A stretch of 63,470 bases of DNA. Source: Candidatus Geothermincola primus. GTDB lineage: Bacteria > Actinomycetota > Geothermincolia > Geothermincolales > Geothermincolaceae. The position numbers were made by a program, and so were the translations under genes. Positions 5,626 through 36,117 of this stretch are shown in pieces; position 1 is the first letter of the stretch, and every line of letters begins with the position of its first letter. Below the pieces are notes generated by a model, which was not told where the DNA came from, searched no databases, and worked only from the letters and a program-made list of their open reading frames with translations. The stretch covers positions 1 to 63,470 of the forward strand of contig JACVIX010000001.1 in the NCBI GenBank assembly GCA_015711725.1, read 5' to 3'.

Positions 5626-6073
5626 CGTAAGCAGTCAACCTCCTCACATGAAAATATGGAAATGGTTATTTCTATCATCTAAACACCGAATGCAGAAAAT
5701 AGTTACATTTTGTAAATTGTATGAGTGAATTTTAATGTATATAGTTAATTACGTAATCTGGTGTTCCGGAGAAATTATTTAATAAGATTCAATAAACATT
5801 ATATATCTATAAGAGGTAGTGTTCAAATATTTTGTTCCATCGGAATCTTTAATCGTTTATCGAGGGCTTAAGTTAACTTTGAAAAACAAGAACAGGGATA
5901 TATCGTCTAAGCCTAGGGAAATTTACCATAAATTCGTGGGGAAATACGTCTTATCCTTGCCATGACATGTAGGTAGAATTGGAATAAAGACAAAAGGGTC
6001 TTAATCCGAGGATGTCTATACCGATGATTCATGAAGAAGTGAAAAAGTATGGCGTTTGAATGGAGTAAGCTAT

Positions 6074-14934: not shown

Positions 14935-14952
14935 ATACCTCTAGGGGTATAT
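14935..14952. promoter_or_regulatory. CsoR-family-type operator candidate, site 2 (ATACCTCTAGGGGTATAT)
   Basis: 16-bp palindrome with one mismatched pair, 17-19 nt upstream of the ferredoxin ORF start. It is 16/18 identical to the site at 35475-35492. Confidence 0.45.
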
Positions 14953-15208: not shown

Positions 15209-15640
15209 ATGGGGGACAAGAGTTACGAGTTTCTAGAGCGGTATCATTACGCAGTGGTAAAGTCCAATCAAGGAAGCTTGGATAAGTTGAAGGCGCGGAT
15301 AGGATCGGAATGGGCGAACATGATGAAGGGTAGATATGGAAAGATCGAAGAAGCGAAGAAATTTTCCCATTGTATAGAAAGTTTTCTTAAAGATGATCTC
15401 GCTCTCTGCGATAGCGTAAATGCCAAGGAGGAAGACGACCATTTCTCTATAGATATAAAGGGATGTCGTCTATGCTATGGAAACGAAAGATTGCGCAGGG
15501 AAAATTTACCTGCTCTTTGTCCCGTAACGGCTATGGGCCTTTCGAGTATATCAAGAGTACGCGGCAGAAAGGCTACATTGAAAGATGTGATGAAGAAAGG
15601 GGTAGTGGGTGAGTGCAATATCAATTATAAACTTCGCTAG
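15209..15640 (+). CDS. hypothetical Cys-containing protein (co-operonic with the ferredoxin)
   Basis: 143-aa ORF starting 30 nt after the ferredoxin stop. Contains 'GCRLCYGN...LCPV...GEC'. The family is not recognised with confidence. Confidence 0.5.
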   Translation: MGDKSYEFLERYHYAVVKSNQGSLDKLKARIGSEWANMMKGRYGKIEEAKKFSHCIESFLKDDLALCDSVNAKEEDDHFSIDIKGCRLCYGNERLRRENLPALCPVTAMGLSSISRVRGRKATLKDVMKKGVVGECNINYKLR

Positions 15641-16019: not shown

Positions 16020-16034
16020 TGAAAAAGAGAGATT

Positions 16035-16107
16035 TAGCTCCCGAGAGTAAGCGAGATTGCGGGGATCTCCGCTGTGAGAATTAAAAAAGGCTTATACTCG
16101 GGAGCTA
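16035..16107. repeat. long inverted repeat / RNA hairpin (18-position helix with one A-A mismatch and one G-U pair; 37-nt interior with a nested GCGG/CCGC hairpin)
   Basis: TAGCTCCCGAGAGTAAGC ... GCTTATACTCGGGAGCTA, paired by hand. Confidence 0.6.
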
Positions 16108-16272
16108 TCCATTTGCGGAAAAACCAATGTGCGCCAACGAAGAATAAGAGCGTTCCTATGGTTATCCTCTACTAGTTTCCTCAAGGCCCTCCGTTGTTAT
16201 TATCCTGCAAAGTGTCGAGGTTATCGGAGAGGTTTGGTGCGATGCTAACGCTTATTAAAAATCACGTTTTAA

Positions 16273-31722: not shown

Positions 31723-32022
31723 ATGGCCAAGGACAAAGATGAAAAAATCGCTATTTTACGCCGTTTGAACAGGATAGAGGGGCAAGTTAGAGGGATAGCT
31801 CGCATGGTTCAAGAGGACGAGAACTGTGAGGACATCCTAGTTCAGATAGCCGCGGTGAAGGCGGCAGTGGACCGGGTGGGGGTAAAACTGATGGGCCATA
31901 AAATGAAGGAGTGTCTGGAGCAGAAAGGTATTTCGAAACAGGAGTCTATAGACAGGGCTATCGATATTTTCTTACGTTTTACCCAAACTATGGGCTCGGT
32001 GGGAAGCTTAGAAAAACGCTGA
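31723..32022 (+). CDS. CsoR/RcnR (DUF156) family metal- or thiol-sensing repressor
   Basis: 'LRRLNRIEGQVRGIARMV' and 'CEDILVQIAAVKAAVDRV' are family hallmarks. Cys35 and Cys64 show the canonical 29-residue spacing. His59 lies one position off the canonical Cu(I) His. Confidence 0.85.
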   Translation: MAKDKDEKIAILRRLNRIEGQVRGIARMVQEDENCEDILVQIAAVKAAVDRVGVKLMGHKMKECLEQKGISKQESIDRAIDIFLRFTQTMGSVGSLEKR

Positions 32023-32398: not shown

Positions 32399-35300
32399 TC
32401 AAGCCCTCATCAGCTCTCCCATCATAGGCCCCAGCAGAGGGGGCATGACTCTCTCCATCACCCCGGGCAGCATGCGGGGCATCAGTTCGCGCATAGATGG
32501 GGACATCTCTGGCATCTTCTGTTCTAGGATGGGAAGCATGCGGGGTAGCATCAGTTTGAGCATGAGAGGCAACAGGCGCGAAGCCATAGAGGGTCCCACT
32601 TTGGTCATCGCCCAAACGATAGTCCTCTTGACGGGCGAAGGTAGAGCGCGCATTCCTTTTATGATGGCTGAGCTGGGCCCAGGAAGAGATAGCAGGAACT
32701 CTTCCATGAAGTCTGCCATACCCTGAGGAGTCATTAGTCTAATCATCTTGTCGAAAACGGCCCAGTTCCTGGCCACCTCGGCAGTGGGGTCCCCTAAAGG
32801 ATAACCCAAAGCCTCTGAAACCACGGAGGCAAAATCGCGAACTGGCATTTCGCTTCCTGCGGCTTGGCTCCATACTCTCAATTGAAATTCGCAGCAAGGG
32901 CAGGTTGTGACTATGGCTTGAGCTTCGGTCTGTCGAGCTTCCTCAAGCCTTTTGGAGGCGATAGCCTCAGAAGTGGGCTTGGTTTCGCCGATAAGTGTGA
33001 GAACGCTACCACAACAGAGGGCGTCTTCACGGTTATGTTCCATCTCCACTAACGTGATCCCCGGAATGGCTTTCAGCACTTCCCTGGGCGCTTCGTAGAT
33101 ACCTCCGTGGCGTCCAATGTGGCAAGGATCGTGCCATGTGATCTTCATGGGAATATTATTTACAAATTGTAATTTATTTTCCGCAAGAAGTTCTGCGGCA
33201 ACCTCCGAAATATGTTTTACCTCCACCTCCCATTCGATTCCAAGCTTCTCGGCCCATTGTTTATAGTGGTGGGATAAAGTGACCCAGCAACCCGGGCATG
33301 AGGCTATCAAAGTCTTGATCCCCCTGCCCTTTATTTCCTCTATATTCTTGCGCACAGCTTTTTCGAACAGGTCCCATTTTCCGCTCATAAGAAAAGGAAT
33401 GCCGCAACAAGTCTCCTTCTCCCCTAGATAAACGAATTCCAAACCTCCCTCCTTAAGTATGCGTACAGAGCCTTGGGCGATATCCTTCTCCACATAGGAA
33501 GCAGTGCAACCTGCCCAGTAACCCAAAGATCCTTCCTTGAGAACATCTATATCCTCGGGGAGCCAGGAGTCTCGATTCTCGGAAAAACTTGCCCAGATGT
33601 TGCTCTCCATATCGTAGGAAGCGCCCATCATCTCGAAAGGAGGAAATGTCTTAAATCTGCCGGAAGCGATTAGTTCGCCCCGCATGGATTCCCATAGGGA
33701 TTCAATGGGCAAATCGGTCTGACATACGTTGTCACATTTTTTACACGTTGTACATAAAAGAAAGGTTCTTGCCATCTTTTCGTTTAAGGGAAGCCTGCCC
33801 TGGCTATATCTCTTGAGGTAATACCATTTGCCGCGAGGGGAAGCGCTTTCCCAACCCCTGCCAGAGTAGAGAGTACATTCTTGGACGCAGTATCCACATT
33901 GAGCGCAGGTGTAAGCGGCGGTTTCCAACTCTTGAGGCAATTTTTTCCTCAAAGAGGGGATATTCTTGGGAAGAAGCCAGCCCATTCTCCAACCTAGCGG
34001 GGCCAGAGGTGTCGCAAAGGACAGGAAATAGTCTAAAAGGCGGACCTTAGCCGGTCTGTGCTCGTCAACTAGTAATTTGCCTGGATTCATAATTCCCGAA
34101 GGATCATGGTCTATTCGATAGCGGCGCAGAAATTCGCTTTTTGTTTTGCCCCACCGTTCCTCAAAGCTAGGCGCAAAGTAAAGACCGATCCCGTAAGGCT
34201 TTCCCCCTCGCTTTCGCACCAGGCTTAGAAAATGCAAGGATTTGGCGAATTCAAGGGTGAACGCAGGAGACCTGGTGTCCGAAGGGATAAAACCTAGAAG
34301 AATCGCCCATCCGTCGGAGGTAAGCGTAGCCTCGATGCTCATATCGGGAATGGACTTCTCCGTGGCGGCGAAAACGGTTGAAAGATACTCCCAAGGTATC
34401 ATGGCTTCGGCGGGGATAAGGGAGGGGCCCAGCTTGCGAAGGCGCATGGGATTAAACCTCTCTTCCCATTCGTGGAGAGCCTGTTTCTGAGGAAGTTGTT
34501 TCCCCCCATGGCGTGAAGCGATTCTTACGAGATGCCTCTCCGTCTCTGGTGAGGGATTTTCCAACACCACAAGTGCTAAATAGGTAACGGGAAGGGGGTC
34601 TTCGGCATCAAGCTGGTTTTTAATTTTAGCTAATTGGGGGTTGAGAATTTGTAGGTGGTAGATGTCAAGGTCAGTGCCCAGTTCTCGCATAAAGGACTGG
34701 ATTCCCAGATAGCCCTTGAATGAGAAGAGTAAGGGGATCTCCTCGCCCGCTTTACGAACCTTAAGCCTTACTGCGGTGATGATCCCGGTGATGCCCTCCG
34801 CACCGTAGTATTTCCAAAGGTCACTCCCTCCAATTTCTTGTAGATTTCCCTCGGGAGAAACTACTTCCAGGCTTTCCAGGTTGCTTTCCAGGGAACCGTA
34901 ACTATAACTCCCAATGCCATAGCCACCCTCAGCCACCCAGCCCCCCACTGTTGAGGAAGGAGCACTGGAGGGGTAGACGCGCAGGGCAAAGCCCTCTTTT
35001 CCAAGGGCTGTTTCTAGATGCTTCCAGATTACCCCTGCATCCACCAGTGCGGTTTCACTTTGGGGATCGATTTCCCTAATTGTGTTCAGCGAGGTGAGGT
35101 CGATTACCATGCCCCCGCTGGAGGGCAACGCTCCACCATAGCCGCTGGTAGCGGAGCCTCTAGGAACAATAGGAATTCCTCGGCTGCGAGCTAGCTTTAC
35201 CAGGTGAATTATTTCTTGGACGCCCCTGACCTTTACCACCACTTCCGCCTGGGGTCGTAACAGTTTTTCTATGATGCTTGGAAATTCCCCCATATCATGG

Positions 35301-35446
35301 GAATAAAGGTCCAGCTCAATATCATCCCAGGTCACTCGGTCGCCAAGATCTTGTTTGAGAGATACCTTGAATTGTTTGGTAACTTTTCCAGCCAATATCT
35401 CCACCTCCAAAAACTTCGCGCTAGCGAGCCTTCGCCTTTCCATCAT
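32399..35446 (-). CDS. fused FAD-linked oxidase (GlcD-like) + 2x[4Fe-4S] + 2xCCG (GlcF/HdrD-like) oxidoreductase with a Met-rich C-terminal extension
   Basis: 'PRGSATSGYGGALP' marks the FAD_binding_4 domain. 'CAQCGYCVQEC' and 'CTTCKKCDNVC' are the cluster motifs. 'CCGIPF' and 'CCGSVL' are the CCG motifs. An alternative TTG start at 35395 follows GGAGGTG. Confidence 0.85.
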   Translation of the reverse strand: MMERRRLASAKFLEVEILAGKVTKQFKVSLKQDLGDRVTWDDIELDLYSHDMGEFPSIIEKLLRPQAEVVVKVRGVQEIIHLVKLARSRGIPIVPRGSATSGYGGALPSSGGMVIDLTSLNTIREIDPQSETALVDAGVIWKHLETALGKEGFALRVYPSSAPSSTVGGWVAEGGYGIGSYSYGSLESNLESLEVVSPEGNLQEIGGSDLWKYYGAEGITGIITAVRLKVRKAGEEIPLLFSFKGYLGIQSFMRELGTDLDIYHLQILNPQLAKIKNQLDAEDPLPVTYLALVVLENPSPETERHLVRIASRHGGKQLPQKQALHEWEERFNPMRLRKLGPSLIPAEAMIPWEYLSTVFAATEKSIPDMSIEATLTSDGWAILLGFIPSDTRSPAFTLEFAKSLHFLSLVRKRGGKPYGIGLYFAPSFEERWGKTKSEFLRRYRIDHDPSGIMNPGKLLVDEHRPAKVRLLDYFLSFATPLAPLGWRMGWLLPKNIPSLRKKLPQELETAAYTCAQCGYCVQECTLYSGRGWESASPRGKWYYLKRYSQGRLPLNEKMARTFLLCTTCKKCDNVCQTDLPIESLWESMRGELIASGRFKTFPPFEMMGASYDMESNIWASFSENRDSWLPEDIDVLKEGSLGYWAGCTASYVEKDIAQGSVRILKEGGLEFVYLGEKETCCGIPFLMSGKWDLFEKAVRKNIEEIKGRGIKTLIASCPGCWVTLSHHYKQWAEKLGIEWEVEVKHISEVAAELLAENKLQFVNNIPMKITWHDPCHIGRHGGIYEAPREVLKAIPGITLVEMEHNREDALCCGSVLTLIGETKPTSEAIASKRLEEARQTEAQAIVTTCPCCEFQLRVWSQAAGSEMPVRDFASVVSEALGYPLGDPTAEVARNWAVFDKMIRLMTPQGMADFMEEFLLSLPGPSSAIIKGMRALPSPVKRTIVWAMTKVGPSMASRLLPLMLKLMLPRMLPILEQKMPEMSPSMRELMPRMLPGVMERVMPPLLGPMMGELMRA

Positions 35447-35471
35447 TTCGTAAAGCTTTGTTTCGGCCGAA

Positions 35472-35493
35472 AATATACCCTTAGGGGTATATT
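35472..35493. promoter_or_regulatory. CsoR-family-type operator candidate, site 1 (AATATACCC-TTAG-GGGTATATT)
   Basis: Perfect 9-bp arms with a 4-nt spacer. It lies 26 nt upstream of the ATG at 35446 of the FAD/Fe-S oxidoreductase, or 77 nt upstream of the alternative TTG start. Confidence 0.5.
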
Positions 35494-36117
35494 GTCAATA
35501 GTTTATATCATGCATTAAAGGTGAATAATTTTCGGGATCACGCGTTGTTCATCAGGAATTTAAAGGGTTGGGGCAAGAAAAGCCTATTGTTTGTGGATTT
35601 TACAGTGGATGCCGAATGACTAGTGTTGAGCTGTTCCGCTTATCAAACTTATCTGTGAGGTGGGGATGAGAAAATTGCACGTCAATTTATGGGACGGCAC
35701 TGTTAGCCTCGCGGACTCGGGTCTTTTACCCGAAAGACCCTTTGAATGGATATTGTACGAATGATGGAGGGTGAAGCGAAGCGCCAATTTGGTTAAGGAA
35801 AAATAAGCATAATTACGGTCATGCATCTAAAGCAAATCTTTAGGCAAAAACCCAAGATTCGTTGTTACGGAACTGTTACGATAATGCAAAATTTCTGTGA
35901 CTATTTTCATGTTTGCCCAGGTTAATAGTTGAGTGGGATTATGCCCAGGGATTAATATTCTTACAGCGAACCCGGTTGCAAAGCGGTGGTGACAGAAACA
36001 TTAGCGGAGGGAAATATAAGCTGTGTAATGATATAATTAAAGGGCCTTTTAGAATGTAATCCTCGAGCTCCAACATTAATTCATCGATAGGTTGATTATA
36101 AGAGATAAAGGTAAGGA

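Follow-up and report, generated by a model that had tools for sequence, protein, structure and literature searches.

The locus lies in a 63,470-nucleotide stretch of the genome of Candidatus Geothermincola primus, the whole of which is referred to as the window. It consists of a gene for a CsoR-family repressor, a convergent gene for a large oxidoreductase, and a 22-bp palindrome in front of the latter. A second site of the same kind precedes a pair of genes encoding a ferredoxin-like protein and a protein of 143 aa. The coordinates are collected in Table 1.

Table 1. Features of the locus, with positions in the window
Feature	Coordinates	Strand	Characteristics
Second proposed operator, ATACCTCTAGGGGTAT	14935-14950	.	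Conserved in relatives
2x[4Fe-4S] ferredoxin-like gene, 69 aa	14969-15178	+	Downstream of second site
Gene for 143-aa protein	15209-15640	+	Bet3/V4R/MopR-sensor-like predicted fold; four invariant Cys
CsoR-family repressor gene, 99 aa	31723-32022	+	PF02583; C35, C64, K60, RLXR R14-R17, Q41
Oxidoreductase ORF, 1015 aa	32399-35446	-	FAD_binding_4, FAD-oxidase_C, 2x[4Fe-4S], 2xCCG, Met-rich tail
Sigma-70-like promoter	35470-35498	-	10/12 consensus matches
Proposed operator, 22-bp palindrome	35472-35493	.	ScCsoR-site match (PMC7533328); conserved at orthologue promoters

The palindrome reads AATATACCC-TTAG-GGGTATATT (AATATACCCTTAGGGGTATATT in full) and has, as the earlier note had claimed, perfect arms of 9 bp, which flank a centre of 4 nt; its core 16-mer ATACCCTTAGGGGTAT spans positions 35475-35490. 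An inverted-repeat search of the window places the arms at 35469-35480 and 35485-35496 (92% complementary, 4 nt apart) and returns 48 short inverted repeats, so a palindrome of such size is not rare. A scan for sigma-70-like consensus elements reads TTGACA-ATATACCCCTAAGGGTA-TATTTT on the minus strand, with the -35 element TTGACA at 35498-35493 and the -10 element TATTTT at 35475-35470, separated by a spacer of 17 nt. The palindrome fills this spacer and overlaps the -10 element of the promoter, which reads into the oxidoreductase gene. Its distances to the ATG at 35446 (26 nt) and to the TTG at 35395 (77 nt) are as previously given. The TTG, credited earlier with the better Shine–Dalgarno sequence, is the likelier start because the N-termini of orthologues align from approximately residue 18-30 onward and a GGAGG Shine–Dalgarno sequence stands in front of it.

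Exact matches to ATACC-N6-GGTAT occur only twice in the window: ATACCCTTAGGGGTAT in the palindrome and ATACCTCTAGGGGTAT at the second site. Both fit exactly the formula ATACCn6GGTAT, the 16-bp site bound by ScCsoR—the two-Cys sulfane-sulfur sensor of Streptomyces coelicolor—in EMSA on the pdo promoter (PMC7533328). For Streptomyces CsoR, the consensus site is ATATACCCCTNAGGGGTATAT, and copper CsoR sites carry TAC-N9-GTA (PMC3902906). The cst operator of Streptococcus mitis, to which CstR binds, is AATATACCCTTATGGGGTATATT (PMC8643695) and equals the window site plus one central base. Written as AATA-TAC-CCTTAGGG-GTA-TATT, the window site has the layout of a type-2 CsoR-family operator, in which an inverted repeat of TAC/GTA encloses interrupted G/C tracts and is itself bordered by AT-rich sequence, and ATACC-N6-GGTAT, or a close cst variant of it, positioned over a promoter is the arrangement of CstR- and ScCsoR-type operators (PMC7533328, PMC8643695). 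The CsoR-type architecture proposed in the earlier note holds insofar as the site matches the published type-2 consensus; the dyad spacing, however, is TAC-N8-GTA at both window sites and not the N9 of copper CsoR. A search of the window with one mismatch allowed yields four matches, which is not significant (11 of 100 shuffles reach four). Because neither the size of the palindrome nor this count is unusual, the case for an operator rests on the match to published sites, the position, and the conservation.

The regulator gene had been attributed to the CsoR/RcnR family, which is borne out by a Pfam match to PF02583 of 87.1 bits (cut-off 22.8). It is the sole PF02583 gene in this genome, denoted G000 and 99.7% complete. 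In HMMER alignments with solved structures of CsoR, InrS, and CstR, including 4m1p, 5fmn, and 4adz, K60 aligns with the His that serves as Cu(I)/Ni ligand; His59 lies one residue before this canonical ligand position, and N34 stands in place of the second-shell Tyr. The alignment of the regulator comprises 26 homologues: a close subfamily of approximately 97 aa (46-59% identical, all metagenomic) and canonical members, which show Y-C and H-x3-C. C35 is invariant in these sequences, and C64, 29 residues apart from it, is kept in at least 90% of them. The Y position of the close subfamily is occupied by K, R, Q, or S and never by His; the residue before it varies between H, N, R, and S, so His59 is not conserved, and the residue before the first Cys, N34 here, is G, S, P, D, or N in relatives. 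R14 and R17 of the RLXR motif and Q41 of helix 2 are invariant in all 26 sequences; the RLXR and Gln residues are needed for operator binding by the CsoR of S. lividans (PMC3902906).

The x-C-H-C signature of Cu(I)-CsoR, with a His at Y four residues before the second Cys and a Tyr before the first, is absent. The regulator is classed as x-C-x-C, with two conserved Cys at the X and Z positions and no His at Y, because K60 takes the His position, C35 lacks a preceding Tyr, and C35 and C64 are both conserved. A survey of the superfamily assigns this signature to persulfide sensors, namely SSN clusters 3, 4, and 10 (PMC8643695). By its residue signature, the regulator is a two-Cys, His-less, CstR/ScCsoR-like protein and not a canonical copper CsoR; the family membership claimed earlier stands, with the gene being the only one of its kind in the genome, but the copper type does not. 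Raw similarity is nearer to copper CsoR (E value of 2.6e-14 for 4m1p vs 1.7e-10 for the CstR 7mq1), which counts against the reading favored below. A selenocysteine in the regulator of the relative G011 was considered on account of one in-frame TGA and rejected, as this codon is not within the aligned part of the protein. As for autoregulation, a search upstream of csoR in G000 finds no site within two mismatches, another point against the reading favored below; such a site is seen in G004 only.

Two-Cys repressors of the CsoR family are known from studied bacteria as persulfide sensors that turn on oxygen-dependent genes for sulfide detoxification. ScCsoR (SCO0620) resembles the present system in being a two-Cys repressor with Cys residues 29 apart, in its identical operator formula over promoters, and in its actinobacterial host; however, it controls a persulfide dioxygenase, a rhodanese, a sulfite exporter, and itself (PMC7533328), whereas the putative targets here are the FAD/Fe-S/CCG oxidoreductase and the ferredoxin/V4R-like pair, and G000 features no autoregulatory site. 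The CstR proteins of S. aureus, E. faecalis, S. pneumoniae, and S. mitis share the x-C-x-C signature without the allosteric His and an AT-flanked operator, AATATACCCTTATGGGGTATATT, that is almost the same as the window site. They differ in the dyad spacing (TAC-N9-GTA vs N8 here), in the residue at Y (Asn vs Lys/Arg here), and in their neighborhoods, which, unlike the present one, encode sulfurtransferases, CoA persulfide reductase, SQR, and PDO (PMC8643695). Copper CsoR of S. lividans, B. subtilis, and G. thermodenitrificans (PDB 4m1p, 4adz) has the fold family, the RLXR and Gln residues, and a type-2 operator with TAC/GTA dyads around G-tracts in common with this system, but its x-C-H-C signature, Tyr/Glu second shell, N9 spacing, and copZA targets are all missing here (PMC3902906). 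TTHA1953 of Thermus thermophilus is likewise a two-Cys CsoR-family repressor of genes for redox and sulfur metabolism instead of metal efflux, and its binding needs TAC/GTA repeats and exact spacing; in contrast, its consensus is TACNNTACNNNNGTANNGTA, and the Sox genes that it targets lie far from its own gene (PMC10318464).

The N-terminal half of the oxidoreductase resembles D-lactate, glycolate, and D-2-hydroxyglutarate dehydrogenases; the C-terminal half scores best with the thiol:fumarate reductase TfrB, followed by LdhH and GlpC. The domain order FAD_binding_4, FAD-oxidase_C, two [4Fe-4S], and two CCG in approximately 1000 aa is also that of YdiJ (PMC9504171) and Dld-II (PMC4481167). The relation to YdiJ is only distant, at 42.8 bits compared with the cut-off of 1350 of the YdiJ model. 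The Met-rich tail of approximately 110 residues (window 32402-32755) follows an MLPxM/MPxM rhythm and is covered in alignments to orthologues of Anaerolineae, Slackia, and Archaeoglobus with identities of 40-62%. Judged from these alignments, the tail is a family feature and not specific to genomes with the operator; it is not read as a link to copper because it is aligned also in distant orthologues lacking the operator. The pairing of a putative thiol-based sensor with an enzyme carrying CCG modules suggests a possible role in the reduction of persulfides, polysulfides, or disulfides.

The near-identical site that the earlier note had placed at 14935-14952 was found as the 16-mer listed in Table 1. 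It ends 18 nt before the ferredoxin ATG, with its right arm running into TATATA, 16 nt before the same ATG; the consensus scan gives no good -35 element on the plus strand at this site. The site is found directly upstream of the pair of genes also in G003, G004, G006, and four assemblies filed at NCBI as Actinobacteria bacterium, that is, in at least seven genomes and independent of the order of the neighboring genes. The 143-aa protein has no family match by sequence in Pfam, NCBIfam, or PDB. Its structure is predicted confidently (pLDDT 94.6), and the modeled fold matches Bet3/TRAPP, YslB, and the phenol-sensor domains of DmpR, PoxR, and MopR, which we take to be the V4R-type ligand-binding fold. 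Approximately 35 homologues are found, all from uncultured Actinobacteria-type assemblies, and C86, C89, C104, and C136 are invariant. In the gap at 15.6-16.3 kb, neither an Rfam family nor a tRNA was found. A conserved element of approximately 75 nt lies downstream of the Fe-ADH gene on the minus strand (window 16030-16115); it features an 11-bp closing stem, the invariant core GCGGAGATCCCCGCAATCTCGCT, and three pairs with compensatory changes, recurs in G003, G004, G006, and NCBI Actinobacteria MAGs, and has no Rfam match.

The site stands upstream of the oxidoreductase orthologue, with csoR adjacent, in eight assemblies: G000, G001, G003, G004, G011, G014, G028, and an ENA contig. The gene order is rearranged among them. 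In G001, G003, and G004, the csoR and oxidoreductase genes converge as in the window, and in G011, G014, and G028, regulator gene, site, and enzyme gene lie on one strand with the site between the genes. The distance from the site to the start of the oxidoreductase alignment is approximately 40-115 nt in the seven assemblies other than G000; the G003 site is of the ATACC-N6-GGTAT type with one mismatch in an arm. In the aligned promoters of the orthologues, the dyad and a TAT-rich right flank are common, the -35 element is not. A MAG of the cultured species Slackia heliotrinireducens carries ATATACCCCAGCGGGTATAT approximately 150 nt upstream of a 41%-identical orthologue, and the examined loci of the orthologues from Anaerolineae and Archaeoglobus are without such a site. 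The palindrome is placed above chance because it matches a published operator exactly, lies between the -35 and -10 elements, and is conserved at the same promoter elsewhere. Sequence comparison thus indicates that it is very probably a real operator of a CsoR-family repressor, with redox genes and not copper efflux as targets.

In the genome as a whole (3.17 Mb), ATACC-N6-GGTAT occurs 31 times where approximately four copies are expected, and each other spacing from 0 to 15 gives two to nine; it is the second most enriched gapped palindrome of G000. TACCC-N4-GGGTA behaves similarly (24 copies vs 0-5 at other spacings). The half-sites alone are not enriched in G000, and variants with one mismatch are enriched two- to threefold at the outer positions but not at the AC/GT core. 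The motif is enriched to the same degree in coding and noncoding DNA, the 31 copies share no information content outside the 16-mer, and their clustering on the chromosome is not significant. Of the 31, 27 are within long ORFs, where they occupy all three frames; taken literally, the motif is therefore not enriched in promoters, an outcome that the earlier note had named as contradicting an operator. The host genes are real: they include those for a hybrid kinase, RACo, a glycyl-radical enzyme, MoeA, TldD, and ArgB, and one presumably encodes carbamoyl-phosphate synthase, identified by its INTPRG motif and length only. Peptide motifs or codon bias were rejected as the source of the in-gene copies: 3.7 copies are expected from the encoded peptides and the codon usage of the genome vs the 27 observed, counts at seven control spacings are near the codon-aware expectation, and the half-sites are not enriched. 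A few of the copies do coincide with conserved peptides, for example, INTPRG in CarB.

The view that the in-gene copies are conserved functional sites finds no support. At orthologous positions in G001-G004, the arms are 70.7% identical and the flanks 77.7%, and most of these positions in the four family relatives are not sites. Because the arms are no better conserved than the flanks and most orthologous positions are not sites, sequence comparison places the gain of the copies in the G000 lineage, via mostly synonymous changes. The G+C content is 51% in G000 and 54-69% in the loci of the relatives. Among relatives, motif counts are patchy (1-40), and the regulator gene is present in 26 of 31. 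A dispersed repeat, the other outcome that the earlier note had held against an operator, is absent from G000: a REP- or MITE-like family was rejected there for want of conservation beyond the 16-mer, and the 37-nt repeat of G011 does not occur. In G011, of a related genus, 12 of 15 inspected copies of the 16-mer do belong to this repeat, which consists of GGGGTCAGGTCTTGAATTTTG followed by ATACCCCNNGGGGTAT; the intergenic repeats start no more than approximately 13 nt after the stop of an upstream ORF in the same orientation (loci L043-L057; for example, L048 1468-1516). The repeat is seen also in G008 (L060), and the csoR-linked operator of G011 is without its flank. The symmetry of the motif, its dependence on one spacing, and the graded tolerance of mismatches resemble the outcome of selection by a dyad-binding protein, perhaps this repressor. 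A different gapped palindrome, TTACA-N3-TGTAA (roughly ATTTACATAATGTAAAT), is the most over-represented one in G000, with 119 copies where approximately one is expected, 77% of them outside long ORFs and with AT-rich flanks; copies in the window are at 5703 and 33160, and the motif has the appearance of a global regulator site.

The window contains no copA, as the earlier note had claimed. The copA gene of G000, with two HMA domains and a CPC motif, lies on a different contig (C30:12788-15355) and has no operator site upstream, which supports the claim of redox targets instead of copper efflux; neither copA nor copZ is found under the operator or beside the regulator gene. In 24 of 25 genomes, G000 and 23 relatives, copA lacks a site within one mismatch. 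Only in G003 does a site precede copA, and this counts against the reading favored below, as does the lack of genes for SQR, PDO, rhodanese, and TauE at any site examined. These genes and those for CoA persulfide reductase, typical of CstR neighborhoods, are missing from the annotated sites; the conserved partner of the regulator is the FAD/Fe-S/CCG oxidoreductase, and the annotated genes at other sites are unrelated. The G003 site, ATACCCTAAGGGGTAT, lies at C5:365345-365360 (L034) between a rubrerythrin gene and copA, and this copA is broken into two reading frames. The two-HMA copA of G000 is closely preceded, at C30:12690-12745, by two tandem copies of the direct repeat AATCGCATCGCATACACGATT; this 21-mer is a candidate site for a different copper regulator.

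From the observed motif, its promoter position, the single regulator gene, the residue signature, and the conservation of the triad, we favor, with a probability of approximately 0.8, the reading that the repressor encoded at 31723-32022 uses the palindrome as its operator and that a thiol-reactive signal releases this protein from it. As to its parts, the assignment of the site to this repressor is made with high confidence, and a thiol-reactive effector is only slightly preferred over copper. The repressor in its reduced thiol form would bind the ATACC-N6-GGTAT dyad, probably, like other members of the family, in the form of two tetramers. Because the dyad occupies spacer and -10 element, bound repressor is proposed to keep RNA polymerase off the oxidoreductase promoter. 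As suggested by the residues, a thiol-reactive signal—most likely persulfide, polysulfide, or a different thiol-modifying oxidant or electrophile—would modify the C35/C64' pair, and release would switch on the FAD/Fe-S/CCG oxidoreductase and, via the second site, the ferredoxin/V4R-like pair.

That the regulator is instead a copper sensor, released by Cu(I) bound via C35, C64, and perhaps His59, with the Met-tailed oxidoreductase serving in a copper response, is unlikely. It would account for the site directly upstream of the two-HMA CopA gene in G003, the Met-rich tail, the His59 beside the canonical ligand position in G000 and several relatives, and the best PDB match being a Cu(I) CsoR. However, no member of the subfamily has His at the canonical position, close members carry N, R, or S in place of His59, the second-shell Tyr is absent, copA is almost always without a site, and the tail is shared by distant orthologues that have no operator; moreover, x-C-x-C proteins of the CstR type do bind Cu(I) but show no response to the metal (PMC8643695). 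The in-gene copies imply either that the repressor binds many sites outside promoters or that something else shares its motif, and they count against the favored reading. If the palindrome were a copy of a genome-wide motif belonging to another symmetric DNA-binding protein or a modification enzyme, its position in a promoter would be incidental. The number, spacing dependence, and in-gene excess of the copies, the unenriched half-sites, the inclusion of the 16-mer in the G011 repeat, and the patchy enrichment among relatives, most of which carry the regulator gene, all agree with such an origin. It is nevertheless very improbable: both window sites are kept at the same promoters across genomes that do not share the in-gene copies, they are the copies whose AT-rich flanks extend as is typical for operators, site and regulator gene travel together, and the mismatch tolerance with its strict AC/GT core fits the TAC/GTA dependence of CsoR (PMC3902906). 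For the palindrome at 35472-35493, conservation at the oxidoreductase promoter outweighs the objection from the in-gene copies. A chance palindrome without function, in keeping with the many short palindromes and the insignificant one-mismatch count in the window, has a negligible probability in view of the exact match to a defined operator inside a promoter, conserved in at least nine assemblies with rearranged surroundings.

A further reading, tentative and on balance doubtful, is that the dyad is a genome-wide element in some lineages, placed in approximately 25 genes here by codon choice and carried by a 37-nt intergenic cassette in the sister genus. In that case, the repressor or a factor sharing its sites would act chromosome-wide, for example, as a titration buffer, a roadblock, or a nucleoid-type binder, a role that to our knowledge has not been described for the CsoR family. 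Whatever its origin, the in-gene excess is a clean statistical anomaly that needs an explanation.

The kind of repressor and the operator formula are already published; the conserved target set, the contrast of N8 and N9, and the in-gene excess were not found described in the literature searched. Under the favored reading, the same type of repressor and operator is tied to a different target in a Slackia MAG and across an order of actinobacteria that are uncultured and anaerobic. This target is a flavoenzyme that carries a fused heterodisulfide-reductase-like (CCG) module; the second site adds a ferredoxin and a V4R-like ligand-binding protein. If the signal is thiol-reactive, the enzyme becomes a candidate for the anaerobic reduction of persulfides, polysulfides, or disulfides with electrons from 2-hydroxyacids; we know of no member of this enzyme family to which such a function is currently assigned.

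The Slackia MAG also carries two CsoR paralogues. The canonical one, with Y-C and H-x3-C, adjoins an N9 site, TACCATACGGGGGTA, and the two-Cys paralogue lies near an N8 site, ATACCCCCTGGGGTAT. This pairing suggests that N8 vs N9 spacing keeps the two paralogues apart, and the dyad spacing may represent a simple means by which cells with two CsoR paralogues avoid cross-talk between them.
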